From NCBI GenBank assembly GCA_944388745.1, contig CALXJZ010000001.1, forward strand, positions 5,976 through 69,975: a DNA stretch of 64,000 bases, read 5' to 3'. The translations under genes and the position numbers were made by a program. Origin of the DNA: an uncultured Clostridia bacterium. GTDB lineage: Bacteria; Bacillota; Clostridia; TANB77; CAG-508. Numbering within the stretch: position 1 is the first letter of the stretch; each line of letters begins with the position of its first letter. The notes beneath the pieces were generated by a model. The model was not told the origin of the DNA and searched no databases. It was given only the letters and a program-made list of their open reading frames with translations. Shown here piece by piece: positions 58,781-63,073 of this stretch.

Positions 58781-59813
58781 CTATTTTTCCACCTTATTAC
58801 TTTTATTAAATTCTTCAATCATCTTATCAACAGCTTTATTCTCAACAAATTTCTCAGCCTGTATTAATGTATATTCAAATAGCAAGGCATCACTACTTCC
58901 ATGTGCTTTTACAACAGGTTTCTTGACTCCTAAAAATAATGCTCCACCATATGATTTATAATCCATCTTTTTAGAAAATCTTTTTATTGCTGGCAAACAA
59001 GGTATAGCAGCTATTTTTGTTAATAAATTACTAGTTAAACTTTCTGTTAAAGTTCTTTTTACAAATTTACCTAATCCCTCAGTTGTTTTTAAAAATACAT
59101 TTCCTGTAAAACCATCTGTTACTATTGCATCTATCTTTCCAGAAAAAGCATCTCTTCCCTCTACATTTCCTACAAAATTTATATCTAATTCTTCAGATTT
59201 TTCTTTTAAAAGATTATAACTTTCTCTAACTAATTCATTTCCTTTTGTTTCTTCGGTTCCTATATTTAATAAACCTATTGCTGGTCTTTCAATTCCATAT
59301 GTATTTTTTAAATATATACTAGACATTTGAGCAAATTGTAATAAATTTATTGGCTTACAATTTGTATTAGAACCTGCATCAATTAAAAGTAATTGACTCT
59401 TATATGCTGGTAATATTCCTGCCAATGCTGGTCTATCTATTCCTTTTATTCTTCCTACAATTAAAGTTGCACCGAGTTAATAATGCTCCTGAATTTCCAG
59501 CTGATATAAATACGTCTCCTTCATCTTCTTTTAACATTCTAAATCCTACAACCATTGATGAATCTTTTTTATGTTTTATTGCAACAGTTGGAGTATCACA
59601 CATTTCTATTGTTTCTGTTGCATTTCTAATTTTTAATCTATCAGAAATTTCTTCTATTTCTTTACCATAAAACTCCTTTACTTTACTTCTTATTACATCT
59701 TCTTTTCCTACTAATATTACTTCTGCTTTTATTTTATTAATGGCATTTACTGCTCCTTTTATATTTGCATCTGGTGCGTTGTCTCCTCCCATAGCATCTA
59801 GTACTATTTTCAT
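58781..59813 (-). CDS. plsX: phosphate acyltransferase PlsX, interrupted by a single +1 frameshift near 59474
   Basis: The N-terminal ORF (59433..59813) ends FISAGNSGALLT. The C-terminal ORF (58781..59425) begins ...AGILPAY. Removing one C from actCggtgc restores [29 protein letters not shown], which aligns to the canonical PlsX GAL..G....[11 protein letters not shown]. Confidence 0.8.
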
Positions 59814-59917
59814 TGTAATTCCTCCTAATTTTGTCTTACTCCATATTATTTATGACATATCTATTTTATTATTATTTTAGTAAAATTACAAGTGATTTCG
59901 CTAATTTTATTAGAAAT

Positions 59918-60548
59918 TTAATTATGTTCTGTGTCTATCCATTCACATTTATTCTCTAAAGTTTTATATAAATTATATTTTTCAGCTTCTTTAGCATAAC
60001 CCTTCCATGCAAAAAAAGACTGTCTCCACTTATTTAATTGTTCTATATCATTCTCATTTGTTCTATACTGTTTATTCCAATTTTTAATTCTTTTTTTCAT
60101 TCTCTGAATATTTGCTCTTTTTAACAATTTATGTGTTGTATAAATTTTATATCCACAAAATATCACTCCGACTTTCAAAGGAAAATATGAGGTTTTTTTG
60201 TTCAGCTCCAAATGCAATTCTGTTTTCACAAATTCTTCTATCTCCTTCAAAATCTCTTTTGCTCTTCCTTTACTTTCCAAAATTAAAACAATATATTTCT
60301 CTTTCTTTAGGTATATATACCTTAAATTTACTATATTTTCCTACTTCATATTTCCTTTGCTTTAAATCTGTTCCTATTCTATATATATTGTCTTCTAAAT
60401 ACATTCCAAAATATATTCTATCTTTTTTATTTTTTTTACTTTTTGATGTTCTTTCATATGCTTCTTTAAATTTATAAAAATCTATTGCTTTGTCATAAAT
60501 ACTGTATATTTTTTTACCTCACGGTATGGTTATAAATTTCTTTAACAT
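59918..60548 (-). pseudogene. decayed retroelement reverse transcriptase (group-II-intron/retron-like): retains domain 0/RT1 and RT7/thumb, lacks RT2-6 including YADD, has an in-frame TGA
   Basis: Manual translation: MLKKFITIP(TGA at 60519-60521)GKKIYSIYDKAIDFYKF...KYEVGKYSKFKVYIPKEREKYIV (RT1-like Y.P.P.RRV.IPK), directly joined to ...KTELHLELNKKTSYFPLKVGVIFCGYKI (RT7 EKT.I....GF.FLGY.I) and a K/R-rich thumb. TGA is a genuine stop here (trmFO ends in TGA). Confidence 0.5.
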
Positions 60549-60900
60549 TTCACTACTAAACACCGTCCTTGAACTGAGCGCTACTTTGAGTGGCAATATA
60601 ATTGCTTCATGTTAAAGTACCAAACAGAGAATGCGCCTGACCTGCCGAGTAGATGTTGAAGTTATTAACGCCGAACAGAGAAAAGAATACACGAAAACAG
60701 TTGACACTTTGCAATTTATAACCAAATTTTAATACCTAATAAATTTTTTTTGGTCAGGACTACAGAGACCAGTACACTGTACTACAACTTCTGGTATCGC
60801 ACTAGTTCCATATTACCGGTCTAAATGTAAGGTTGGACGACGCCTGACCTGTAGGGTAGACGCTGAGGAAAACGCCGAACAGAGAATCTCTTATTATCAT
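60549..60900 (-). other. GC-rich structured non-coding segment with two diverged copies of a roughly 55-nt repeat (R1 60836-60890, R2 60628-60681) and a partial third, located 5' of the RT pseudogene
   Basis: Local GC content is far above the surrounding sequence. R1 and R2 are about 80% identical (CGCCTGACCTG...GTAGA.G.TGA.G..A..AACGCCGAACAGAGAA). Palindrome AGTACACTGTACT at about 60771-60783. R1 overlaps the last 30 codons of the 225-aa ORF. Confidence 0.5.
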
Positions 60901-61479
60901 TGGGTTGTTTGTGTTTGAACCATTCTGAAAACTATATGTTGCTCCATACCAGTTTTGAGTCTCCGCTATAGCTCTACCTAGAGTTGTTGTTTTATCAACA
61001 GTATTAGAAATCACATCAACATACTTTTTCATATTCTCATCTTGCAATGCCTCTTCTAATCTGTAACGATAAGATGTTGCTTCTGCTGAGGTTTTATTTC
61101 TACTTTCAAATAATGTAGCAGTTTGCATATACCCTCCTGTATCTTGTACACCTGATTCATTACCTGTAGAAGTAGTACCATAAGAATTAAGTGAAGTTGC
61201 ATTAGAACCATATCTACTTTGTGCTAAATATGCTACTGCTCCCCAATCTAAAGAAGTGGTTAAATGTGGTTCTAGGTTAGATGTTCCAAGTGTTGAATCT
61301 CCATTTCTTAAATTATAACAAAGATCAAAAGATTCCGATACATTTACATTTGTAAGTGTGGTTGCTTTATCTATTACCTGTATTCCTGCCATACTTATTG
61401 TGTTACTACAAATTATTATAGCTATAATCATTATAAACGAAACTATTATTTTTTTCATATGTAAATTTTCTCCTTTCAT
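60802..61479 (-). CDS. hypothetical secreted protein; C-terminus probably altered by the adjacent inserted element
   Basis: Signal peptide (MKKIIVSFIMIIAIIICSNTISMAG), Ser/Thr/Gly-rich mature region. The last about 30 codons are translated from the GC-rich repeat R1. Confidence 0.45.
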   Translation of the reverse strand: MKGENLHMKKIIVSFIMIIAIIICSNTISMAGIQVIDKATTLTNVNVSESFDLCYNLRNGDSTLGTSNLEPHLTTSLDWGAVAYLAQSRYGSNATSLNSYGTTSTGNESGVQDTGGYMQTATLFESRNKTSAEATSYRYRLEEALQDENMKKYVDVISNTVDKTTTLGRAIAETQNWYGATYSFQNGSNTNNPMIIRDSLFGVFLSVYPTGQASSNLTFRPVIWN

Positions 61480-61497
61480 ATAAATTTAATTTTATTA

Positions 61498-63003
61498 CTA
61501 TTTATTGCTAGGGTCATACTTAGCAACCCAGATTCCTGATAATTTTTCGCCATTACTATCTGTATCTTGATCAAATGCTGGATGTACAATAAATCCTTCT
61601 GGCAGAGAATTTCCATATTTTTCTGTATCTAATGGTTTATTATTTGTATCAATAAATATAATTTCCGTATCTTCATTTGGATTATCTGGCAAGCGATATG
61701 CATATCTAGGTACCCATACCCACCACGCTTCAAATCCATTTGCTGTTGTTTTAACATTTGCCCATATTTTATTTTCATAGTCATACCATTTATTATCACT
61801 ATTAAATTCTTCTAGATTTTGCACTTCTGATAATAAAGTTTGACTTTCTACTGTATTACCATCACTAGAATATTTTATTAAGTATGTATATTCTTCATCG
61901 AATCCTGATAAATCTGGTGTTAACACCTTTTGAGACATTTCTAAATCATCACTTTTATCTTTTCCATAACTTGGATCAAATTTTGCCATCCATATTCCTT
62001 TTAACTCCTTATCAGTTGTAAATGCTGGATGTACTTGATATCCTTCCGGTAAAACTCCTCCATATTCTTCTTTTAGTGGCTTATTATCAGTATCAACATA
62101 AATTATATCTATATCTTCTGGATTAGTCGTGTCAGTTGTTTCATTAATTTTATATGCATATTTTGGTATCCATACCCACCAGGCTTCATATCCATTTGCT
62201 GTTGTCTTTATATTTGCCCATATACTATTTGCATAATCATACCATGTATAAGTTATATCTCCATCTTCAATATAACTTATTACTTCTTGATTCATATGTA
62301 ATGTTATTCCAACTTCATATGTTCCTGAAAAATCATTATTATAATATACCGCACTAGTAGTTAAAGCATTAAATCCCTTTAAGTTCGGTGCATAATAACT
62401 TTCTCCATTTACTGTTACTACTTCGCTTTCATCACCTATCACATAATCTTCTTCATTCATTTTCATGTCATACCCAACATCCATAACTCTACAACCATAT
62501 TTATAGCTATGAACTGCTTTACCTCTTAATCTTGTGACTTTTACTTTAAAAAGTGTATCTGTTAATTGGTCATATATATATGTTTCTCCATTTTGAGCAA
62601 CATCATCTGGGACATAATATAATCCTTTAACATCACCAGTTTCGTCTATTAAATAATCTAATAAATTTTCAATATAATATTCTTTTGTAGGTTCTTTAGT
62701 TGTTGGCATTCCTTCTCTTATATATACTATCTCCATTTTTAAACTTGTTGGCAATGTTCTTGTTTCAACTGGTTCTGTAAATATTGGAATATCTTCATTT
62801 GCTAAAAATTCTTTACTATTTTGAATTTCTTTAATGGTTAATCTTTCATCAAGACCTGTCATTTCAGTTGAAAATGCCGCCCATGTTGCATTAGTAATTA
62901 TTCCATTTTCTCCATATAAAGTTGCAATTGAAATACTCGATAATATCAATAAAACTACATTTTTTCGTCGTTTTATTTGCAATGTTTTTATTGTTATTAA
63001 CAT
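61498..63003 (-). CDS. hypothetical secreted protein with two tandem roughly 160-aa repeats
   Basis: Internal duplication of the motif WYDY.N.IWAN.KTTANG.EAWWVW.P.YAY...D..II..DT.NKPL..E.YG..LPEG..VHPAF...G.W.AK.DPS. Signal-like N-terminus. No known catalytic motif. Confidence 0.5.
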   Translation of the reverse strand: MLITIKTLQIKRRKNVVLLILSSISIATLYGENGIITNATWAAFSTEMTGLDERLTIKEIQNSKEFLANEDIPIFTEPVETRTLPTSLKMEIVYIREGMPTTKEPTKEYYIENLLDYLIDETGDVKGLYYVPDDVAQNGETYIYDQLTDTLFKVKVTRLRGKAVHSYKYGCRVMDVGYDMKMNEEDYVIGDESEVVTVNGESYYAPNLKGFNALTTSAVYYNNDFSGTYEVGITLHMNQEVISYIEDGDITYTWYDYANSIWANIKTTANGYEAWWVWIPKYAYKINETTDTTNPEDIDIIYVDTDNKPLKEEYGGVLPEGYQVHPAFTTDKELKGIWMAKFDPSYGKDKSDDLEMSQKVLTPDLSGFDEEYTYLIKYSSDGNTVESQTLLSEVQNLEEFNSDNKWYDYENKIWANVKTTANGFEAWWVWVPRYAYRLPDNPNEDTEIIFIDTNNKPLDTEKYGNSLPEGFIVHPAFDQDTDSNGEKLSGIWVAKYDPSNK

Positions 63004-63030
63004 ATATTTTTTTTACATAATTGTTACAGT

Positions 63031-63073
63031 CAAAAAAAGCAAAAGAATTAGGAATTTCTTCCTAATCCTTTTG
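63031..63073 (-). terminator. rho-independent terminator of tuf
   Basis: Minus-strand GCAAAAGGATTAGGAAGAAATTCCTAATTCTTTTGC followed by TTTTTTTGAC. Confidence 0.75.

Follow-up and report, generated by a model that had tools for sequence, protein, structure and literature searches.

What is the short GC-rich segment at 60549-60900, which overlaps the 3' end of a gene for a small secreted protein and lies next to the fossil of a reverse transcriptase (RT) gene? The window, i.e. the whole 64,000-nt stretch of DNA that was analysed, comes from an uncultured Clostridia bacterium (contig CALXJZ010000001.1), and the initial annotation had offered as candidates for this segment a retron msr/msd-like RNA, the remains of group II intron domain I, or the attachment-site repeats of a lost element. 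Our analysis indicated that it is, with high confidence, the nucleic-acid half of a chromosomal diversity-generating retroelement (DGR), namely its variable region (VR), template repeat (TR) and spacer RNA, without the protein half. DGRs are known bacterial systems by which the end of one protein gene is rewritten after a template copy. This reading draws directly on homology, synteny, two deletions, adenine-specific patterns, RNA covariation and the comparison of hypervariable with frozen VRs. The proposal that the segment belongs functionally with the neighbouring RT fossil was borne out.

The description of the segment as a GC-rich island was accurate, GC content being 40-47% in 100-nt windows across 60550-60900, versus 27.8% for the whole window. 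The two repeats of about 55 nt and about 80% identity are also real, with limits that a repeat search (families D1 and D2) refined to 60841-60886 for R1 and 60634-60682 for R2 (plus-strand coordinates); in local alignment, 38 of 46 aligned bases were identical (83%), with one 3-nt gap. This repeat is orthologously conserved among relatives and is therefore not due to chance. All parts of the locus are read on the minus strand, where the 5' to 3' order is a 501-aa repeat protein, the 225-aa secreted protein, a block containing a palindrome, R2, about 130 nt of conserved sequence, two RT fragments and plsX. The coding and repeat features are the following:

63003-61498, minus strand: 501-aa repeat protein, first in the order
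60802-61479, minus strand: target (variable-protein) gene, 225 aa, intact ORF (from the ORF and its homologues)
60841-60886, minus strand: VR, which is R1 (repeat search and alignment)
60870-60850, minus strand: variable tract of the VR, TTC CTC AGC GTC TAC CCT ACA
60849-60841, minus strand: GC-rich 3' boundary of the VR, GGTCAGGCG, at the end of VR/TR homology
60757-60787, minus strand: conserved block 3' of the target stop codon, GTAGTAC...CTGTAGTNCTG, with the 13-nt palindrome (9 loci)
60634-60682, minus strand: TR, which is R2, non-coding (repeat search and alignment)
60666-60643, minus strand: tract of the TR, AAT AAC TTC AAC ATC TAC TCG GCA

The VR (60886-60841) thus lies inside the 225-aa ORF, and the non-coding TR (60682-60634) lies close to the RT remnant, which starts at about 60500, on the same strand. 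A DGR is recognised by two near-identical repeats, of which one (the VR) closes a protein gene and the other (the TR) is non-coding and lies near the RT gene, all on one strand; this arrangement is present in the window.

The last 30 or so codons of the 225-aa ORF are read from R1, as had been noticed. The accompanying suggestion that an element had inserted into this ORF, or replaced its 3' end, was not upheld, R1 being genuine conserved coding sequence with a hypervariable core. Indeed, alignment with orthologues, which had been proposed as a way of finding where homology stops, revealed no break: the 91 homologues, each about 220 aa long and all of them from uncultured gut Clostridia and Bacillota, align end to end through the last residue. 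Their C-terminus reads RDSLFGV-(7-10 hypervariable aa)-GQA-xxxx-TFRPVIWN, and the N-terminus of the 225-aa protein is a hydrophobic segment resembling a signal peptide (putative). Pfam and NCBIfam scans assigned no family to this target, whether FGE-sulfatase, DUF1566 or any other Pfam domain, and gave nothing useful for the RT fragments; the profile of the target family returned only noise against PDB sequences. A C-type-lectin-like fold is expected for most DGR targets. The AlphaFold model of the target (pLDDT 77) had the Thermus DGR variable protein TaqVP as its top three Foldseek matches in the PDB, at an E value of 0.17, which is not significant and does not demonstrate a C-type-lectin-like fold in this protein.

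Homologous loci, designated here by L and a number, include intact ones, in which the TR, a 120-aa protein and a 358-aa RT stand between the target gene and plsX. The order fusA-tuf-660aa-target-VR-TR-RNA-Avd-RT-plsX-acpP was found in L003, L004 and L089-92. The 120-aa protein is Avd, as it scored 93.9 bits against NF033474 DivGenRetAVD (cut-off 80) and also matched PF22296 bAvd; it is present in L003, L004, L081 and L089-92. The L003-type RT carries IGNYTSQ and YMDD, and its best match among solved structures, over the full length, was 8ub7_A (E 2.8e-43), a chain labelled only 'Reverse transcriptase' and presumably the RT of the Bordetella phage DGR (bRT). The VRs differ in 15 of the 15 listed members compared from the L003-type cluster (38 proteins grouped at 90% identity), the rest of the protein being near-identical. 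Judging from these sequences, the L003-type loci appear to be an active DGR family, and the RT remnants of the window descend from an RT with the DGR motifs IGNYTSQ and YMDD. Elsewhere, L001, L002 and L084 have the target with no TR or RT downstream, and L086 has undergone a separate decay, with loss of avd and of the RT N-terminus.

The TR itself has the composition of a template. In the frame of R1, R2 reads GTT AAT AAC TTC AAC ATC TAC..., which is AAY-rich, like a DGR template. Mismatches between TR and VR fall at TR adenines in 9 of 9 cases in L003, 10 of 10 in both L004 and L015, 12 of 12 in L021 and 17 of 18 in L045. The VR/TR pair of the window departs from this adenine-only rule, only four of its eight substitutions being at TR adenines, with a 3-nt gap in addition. 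The comparison with relatives points to the TR as the origin of this departure. In four relatives, the tract of the TR has the consensus AAT AAC AAC AAC AAC AAC ACA ACA, from which the tract of the window differs by seven changes, all at adenines. Between the TR of the window and the consensus TR, 7 of 16 adenines differ versus 1 of 27 other bases (Fisher p 0.002), and these seven changes in the 24 columns of the tract compare with 7 in 164 columns of the flanks (p 0.0004). The VR tract of the window, in turn, differs from the consensus TR at adenines only, with one codon missing, according to a manual codon comparison rather than a tool count. The VR and TR of the window would thus be independent adenine-mutagenised versions of an ancestral template, and the non-adenine mismatches between them would arise because both copies were mutagenised independently. 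These non-adenine differences are best explained by a TR that changed at adenines, and not by infidelity of the RT.

Overwriting of the TR could have occurred through misdirected retrohoming of cDNA into the TR or through VR-to-TR gene conversion. Database ORFs ending in ...GQANSLFGTLT are VR::TR hybrids, and suggest that VR-TR recombination may occur in this target family, unless they are assembly collapses. The VR is shorter than the TR by 3 nt in the window, 6 nt in L081 and 3 nt in L015, and longer by 3 nt in L083; such differences, in whole codons, fit the known slippage on AAC runs (PMC5758913). JGI metagenome contigs were also scanned for VRs templated by the mutated TR of the window, and none was found.

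Several smaller motifs had been pointed out in the segment, with mixed outcomes. What had been taken for a truncated third repeat (60601-60632) agrees at just 12 of 16 bases, at 60616-60631, a resemblance that is lost in relatives; this stretch is the conserved 3' flank of the TR. The GTGCG pentamer following the TAG stop codon is present, but relatives have TAGTGCAAT, TAGTACAAT or TAGCAGGA at that place, and neither the third repeat nor the pentamer is meaningful. The perfect palindrome, 13 nt long, does occur at 60771-60783 (AGTACACTGTACT), but its palindromy is not conserved, the same position reading AGTACAGTATACT in L003 and AGTACTGAAAACT in L015, and alifold applied to the region 3' of the target stop codon gave neither a supported hairpin at the palindrome nor any covariation support. 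The block that surrounds it (60757-60787) is nevertheless conserved in nine loci, including L001 and L002, which have no TR or RT, and may take part in target-site recognition. As a candidate for an IMH-like element, the GC-rich GGTCAGGCG closes the VR/TR homology, and is followed, past the stop codon, by this conserved block devoid of a covariation-supported hairpin.

The claim that the segment contains structured RNA held up. The RNA features, most of which lie 3' of the TR, are the following:

60713-60724, minus strand: arm 1 of a 12-bp duplex bracketing the TR, UGGUUAUAAAUU (perfect inverted repeat I20)
60609-60617, minus strand: 3' flank of the TR, CUUUAACAU, proposed template strand (pairs 9/9 with AUGUUAAAG)
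60593-60605, minus strand: stem-loop Ha, GCAAU-UAU-AUUGC, directly 3' of the TR (position of the Avd-binding stem-loop of BPP-1)
60551-60592, minus strand: stem-loop Hb, which is P1 of RT-14, with an outer 4-bp stem and an inner 6-bp stem
60565-60574, minus strand: conserved loop of Hb, GUUCAAGGAC (loop consensus GUUYAMGGAC)
60540-60548, minus strand: proposed primer strand, AUGUUAAAG, one spacer base before arm 2 (pairing comparison)
60527-60538, minus strand: arm 2 of the TR-bracketing duplex, AAUUUAUAACCA, in the RT-14 'linker' (inverted repeat and comparison)
60509-60525, minus strand: short stem-loop Hc, ACC-GUGA-GGU, then an A-run (position of the cPRT Stop stem-loop and A-minor adenosines)

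Arm 1 of the long-range duplex lies about 115 nt past the VR, ahead of the TR. In L045, all 12 pairs of this duplex are kept with six double substitutions, while there is one double substitution in L015 and a G.U pair in L083. Of 20000 shuffles, 5 reached a complement equal to that of L045. In sequences this rich in AT, a thermodynamic test (RNAduplex with shuffles) could not tell the long-range helix from background; support for it comes from the in-register comparative count, which could. The 9-bp template:primer duplex is likewise kept, with two double changes in L021 and three in L045. At the place of Ha, hairpins with unrelated stems occur in L015 (7 bp), L021 (6 bp, GUAA loop) and L045 (6 bp). 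The inner stem of Hb is fully paired (6/6) in 10 sequences with four unrelated stem sequences, and comparative counts among relatives revealed covariation in Ha, in the outer stem of Hb and in a further stem-loop, Hd, which is P3 of RT-14. Hc is kept in L003, L086 and L021, with a longer hairpin in L045. Both Hd and the terminator are deleted in the window; on reading the sequences, a hairpin and a U-run were seen between Hd and avd in L003, L004, L081, L083, L086 and L021, and a U-run directly after Hd in L045.

This spacer resembles a known RNA motif. Motifs RT-1 to RT-19 were found near RT genes, and RT-10 was tied to the BPP-1 DGR; other RT motifs were speculated to serve other DGRs, and the role of RT-14 was left open (Weinberg et al., 2017, PMC5737381). 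The whole RT-14 model (RF02921) could be aligned immediately 3' of the TR in five relatives, i.e. L003 (42.2 bits), L045 (41.2), L004 (40.7), L021 (37.9) and L086 (34.5), and matched the window without the last stem (25.7 bits). The spacer RNA is RT-14-like and not a scored member of the family, all these scores being below the gathering score of 48.1. No RT-14 match was found outside the six TR-adjacent loci in about 49 kb searched. The Infernal/Rfam scan that had been recommended for group II and retron models therefore gave a divided answer, with RT-14 matches below the gathering score and no retron or group II model at E <= 10. The same is true of the observations that had been named in advance as contradicting the initial annotation, namely orthologues aligned through the C-terminus and the lack of any ncRNA hit or transcription: the former was found, yet the RT-14 model matches, below threshold. 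The conserved 'linker' of RT-14 (UAAAG..AUUUAU..CC) is present. Compared with the locus, the RT-14 model lacks the TR-proximal hairpin Ha and the upstream partner of the linker; described as 'single-stranded' in RT-14, the linker is paired here with the 3' flank of the TR and with a segment 5' of the TR. A scan of 60400-61600 for promoters and terminators returned sites no more frequent than in shuffles. A mini-ORF, 'MLKKFITIP', at 60546-60517 was rejected, being inside the RNA.

Decay of the protein half could be reconstructed in detail by comparison with L003. BLASTN gave three collinear blocks, in which window positions 62249 to 60495 correspond to L003 2565-4344, 60515 to 60279 to L003 4789-5025, and 60290 to 58803 to L003 5475-6980. 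The resulting features are the following:

60495-60515, minus strand: junction of deletion 1, about 445 bp (BLASTN against L003)
60273-60500, minus strand: N-terminal RT remnant, about aa 11-85 of the intact 358-aa RT, ending in a stop codon
60279-60290, minus strand: junction of deletion 2, about 450 bp (BLASTN against L003 and tblastn)
59918-60289, minus strand: C-terminal RT remnant, aa 236-358, out of frame with the N-terminal remnant

Deletion 1, which has TATTTAT microhomology at both ends, took the 3' arm of Hd and the intrinsic terminator, together with the whole avd gene and the opening codons of the RT. Deletion 2, between the copies of an imperfect 12-nt repeat, removed RT aa 86-235, which presumably contain motifs 1-5; IGNYTSQ was lost with them, and YMDD lies at the 3' edge of the deletion. 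With the L003 RT as query, tblastn recovered aa 7-85 and aa 236-357, each at 96% identity. Across the 64-kb window, tblastn found no match to Avd, and no other RT or Avd is present there. The DGR is thus dead in cis, with the RT palm and Avd gone, its RNA truncated and its template eroded. In L081, whose target is 97% identical, the same junction of deletion 2 is found with avd retained. This junction is common to L081 and to the lineage of the window, which differ in VR and TR, and recurrent deletion, recombinational spread, or change after RT loss are possible explanations.

The dead locus recurs in three independent assemblies and is therefore no assembly artefact. Indeed, the 501-nt stretch 60960-60460, which holds the VR and the mutated TR together with the RNA remnant and junction 1, shows no difference in L094 and a single one in L095 and L096, at a base outside the VR and TR. 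The VR is identical in the window and in these three loci, which come from independent samples; the identity of this stretch across samples indicates that the VR is frozen in the lineage of the window. The RT palm, avd, the terminator and the last stem-loop being deleted, and 7 of the 16 TR adenines having been overwritten, the VR stays frozen in the form ...FGV-FLSVYPT-GQA... Of the features that define a DGR, an intact RT of the DGR clade, Avd and hypervariability of the VR are absent from the window. The locus is a DGR member by descent and not by function, and, since these features are no longer present in working form, it is best filed as a DGR remnant. Taken further, we regard it as rather probable that the TR was overwritten with adenine-mutagenised sequence and that, with stepwise microhomology deletions (first the RT palm, then avd and the 3' end of the RNA), the locus is a natural record of a chromosomal DGR that eroded its own template, died and left a frozen VR, RT-14 being the spacer RNA used by a clade of clostridial DGRs, in which the 'linker' pairs on either side of the TR.

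It could be argued that the cassette still works as an orphan, a second DGR elsewhere in the genome supplying RT and Avd in trans so that the tail of the target is still diversified. Supply of DGRs in trans, and their action on distant targets, are known to occur (Wu et al., PMC5758913). The window has kept an intact target ORF, both duplexes (bracketing and template:primer) and the stem-loops Ha, Hb and Hc, and lineages with the same RT deletion have different VR alleles. Such a cassette would, however, have to operate without Hd and the terminator, and with 7 of 16 TR adenines lost; half of the VR/TR substitutions are at non-adenines, the same VR is found in four independent assemblies, and the 64-kb window offers no other RT or Avd. 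We therefore consider continued diversification in trans very unlikely.

A retron, in which the GC-rich structured segment would be the msr/msd RNA priming msDNA synthesis by the adjacent RT, is scarcely credible. It is true that a structured RNA lies immediately 5' of the RT gene, and that Weinberg et al. (PMC5737381) speculated that many RT-n motifs may be retron RNAs. No retron RNA family matched at E <= 10, however, and the orthologous L003-type RT scored 63.6 bits against the retron model NF038233, far under its cut-off of 235. This RT is also much closer to 8ub7 than to the PDB chains deposited as 'Retron-type reverse transcriptase' (E about 1e-16); in relatives, a DGR Avd stands between the RNA and the RT, and of the two repeat copies one is a coding VR and the other its adenine-rich TR. 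That the segment is what a group II intron left behind (domain I and a decayed RT), or consists of the attachment-site repeats of a lost mobile element, can practically be discarded in spite of the weak similarity of the RT to the group II RT/maturase (111.5 bits against TIGR04416) and of direct repeats flanking about 150 nt, given that the cut-off of TIGR04416 is 300 bits, that no group II RNA model matched at E <= 10 in 59000-62000, that the RT has just 358 aa, that the locus occupies the same chromosomal site (tuf...plsX) in diverged genomes, and that one repeat, the VR of a VR/TR pair, encodes a conserved protein C-terminus with a hypervariable core. The RNA scans, the intact relatives, the synteny and the VR/TR pattern thus led to rejection of all three initial candidates.

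For the DGR itself, a mechanism can be proposed for intact relatives, in which priming, the stop duplex and Avd binding are assigned by analogy with BPP-1. The TR and spacer would be transcribed as a discrete RNA ending at the intrinsic terminator ahead of avd, and this RNA would be bound by RT-Avd. A segment of the spacer would pair with the 3' flank of the TR and prime cDNA synthesis in cis. The RT would then copy the TR, with misincorporation opposite adenines and occasional slippage on the AAC run, until synthesis halts at the 12-bp duplex bracketing the TR. Finally, the cDNA would replace the VR, so that 7-10 residues near the C-terminus of the secreted protein would be rewritten.

The GC island hence becomes an annotated locus, belonging to a small secreted protein family of uncultured gut Clostridia, with no known domain, in which a DGR generates diversity or once did. 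Active and dead copies of one element at one chromosomal site constitute a natural comparison, which could serve the study of what the variable protein binds and of what follows once diversification stops. The analysis also links RT-14 to the spacer RNA of DGRs, and adds, from Bacillota, independent evidence by covariation for two duplexes, the cPRT Stop and the template:primer one, structurally seen so far only in Bordetella phage. It leaves the current understanding of DGRs unchanged, and a decayed member of this kind is of modest interest.

With regard to variable proteins of known DGRs, Treponema TvpA and Bordetella Mtd have a C-terminal VR. Thermus TaqVP (5vf4) shares with the target a C-terminal VR and a motif of the ...FRPV type just ahead of the stop codon, and, as in DGR variable proteins, the AAC and AAT codons of the TR encode the variable residues. 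The target differs from these proteins in having no significant sequence or fold match to them and a very short VR, of 7-10 variable residues.

The BPP-1 DGR (mtd-VR/avd/TR/Sp RNA/brt) is the closest reference for the locus as a whole. In both, the target gene ends in a VR that has a non-coding TR as its partner; intact relatives further share with BPP-1 adenine-only mismatches, Avd, and an RT closest to 8ub7, which we take to be bRT. At the RNA level, both have a TR-proximal stem-loop, a segment pairing with the 3' flank of the TR, a 12-bp duplex across the TR, a short stem-loop with adenosines after it, and a further stem-loop on the 3' side, which binds the RT in BPP-1. Cryo-EM of the Bordetella phage RNP shows these RNA elements, which have been predicted in 207 other DGRs, and the counterpart of the 12-bp duplex is there the 'cPRT Stop' avd:Sp duplex (bioRxiv 10.1101/2023.10.23.563531). 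By analogy, the RNA elements of the locus would correspond one-to-one with those of this RNP, and the geometry of BPP-1, i.e. a primer strand, then 1-2 nt, then the stop duplex, is matched. The gene order differs, being target-VR-avd-TR-Sp-RT in BPP-1 and target-VR-TR-RNA-avd-RT here, and this places the upstream strand of the bracketing duplex between genes instead of inside avd. BPP-1 is a phage element, whereas the present one is chromosomal and comes from uncultured gut Clostridia; its RNA ends ahead of avd at a terminator of its own, and its target is a small secreted protein without a known domain. The window has, in addition, lost avd, the core of the RT and the last stem of the RNA.

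Lastly, non-canonical mutagenesis has been described in DGRs, about 7% of which have indels and about 23% differences at positions other than adenines (Wu et al., 2018, PMC5758913). The present family shares with these cases VR/TR length differences in multiples of 3 nt beside AAC runs, as well as non-adenine differences; those of the window depart from them in that adenine changes in the TR itself, rather than infidelity of the RT, are their best explanation.

Decay of the diversity-generating retroelement (DGR) is recurrent in this clade, in which two relatives of the window locus, L015 and L086, decayed independently. In L015 (6963-7278), an ORF starts immediately after the spacer RNA and, as judged from its sequence, encodes a putative IS256-type transposase; avd and the N-terminus of the reverse transcriptase (RT) are absent from L086 (3300-3950). 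The features considered below, in the window and in L003, a syntenic relative with an intact DGR, are the following:

Window 59433-59813 and 58781-59425, minus strand: plsX ORFs of 126 aa and 214 aa, respectively.
Window 60757-60787, minus strand: conserved direct repeat GTAGTAC-N15-17-CTGTAGTNCTG, a short way 3' of the target stop codon.
Window 61498-63003, minus strand: 501-aa protein upstream of the target, with tandem repeats of ~150 aa.
L003 4379-4412: intrinsic-terminator-like hairpin and U-run, UUGUACAGU-AUC-ACUGUACAA-UUUUU, between the spacer RNA and avd.

The window plsX is broken into its two ORFs by a 1-nt insertion near 59474, where the sequence reads AACTCGGTGC, as against AACAGGTGC in L003 and L089, another relative with an intact DGR. 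The identical frameshift is carried by L095, an independent assembly of the window lineage, which excludes a sequencing error of the window record. Within the 5' part of the gene, a weak match to the Rfam model mycoplasma_FSE (59556-59646, minus strand) reached 24.7 bits (E 9.2) vs a gathering score of 88, and is most likely due to chance. Upstream of the target, the number of repeats in the ~150-aa-repeat protein differs among strains (354, 501, 655 or 660 aa). At window 62959-63034, ~190 nt known from L003 are missing from the window and L095 lineages; in L003, this stretch holds the native promoter region of the repeat-protein gene along with its start codon and codons 1-20. The ORF of the window and L095 lineages begins at another ATG than in L003.

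Seven target homologues from relatives, outside the window (P0015, P0106, P0109, P0110, P0115, P0119 and P0132, with P0109 found on 13 contigs) end in ...GQA(N)SLFGTLT, the translated 3' flank of the template repeat (TR), in place of ...TFRPVIWN, which indicates hybrid genes between variable region (VR) and TR. These reflect either recurrent VR-TR recombination with deletion of the spacer, or assembly collapse. The direct repeat following the stop codon was also present at equivalent positions of L001, L002, L015 and L021, and is retained even where the target locus has no downstream TR or RT. Finally, equivalents of the terminator-like hairpin were found in L004, L081, L083, L086 and L021; this location between spacer RNA and avd suggests that the TR RNA is a discrete transcript, separate from avd-RT.
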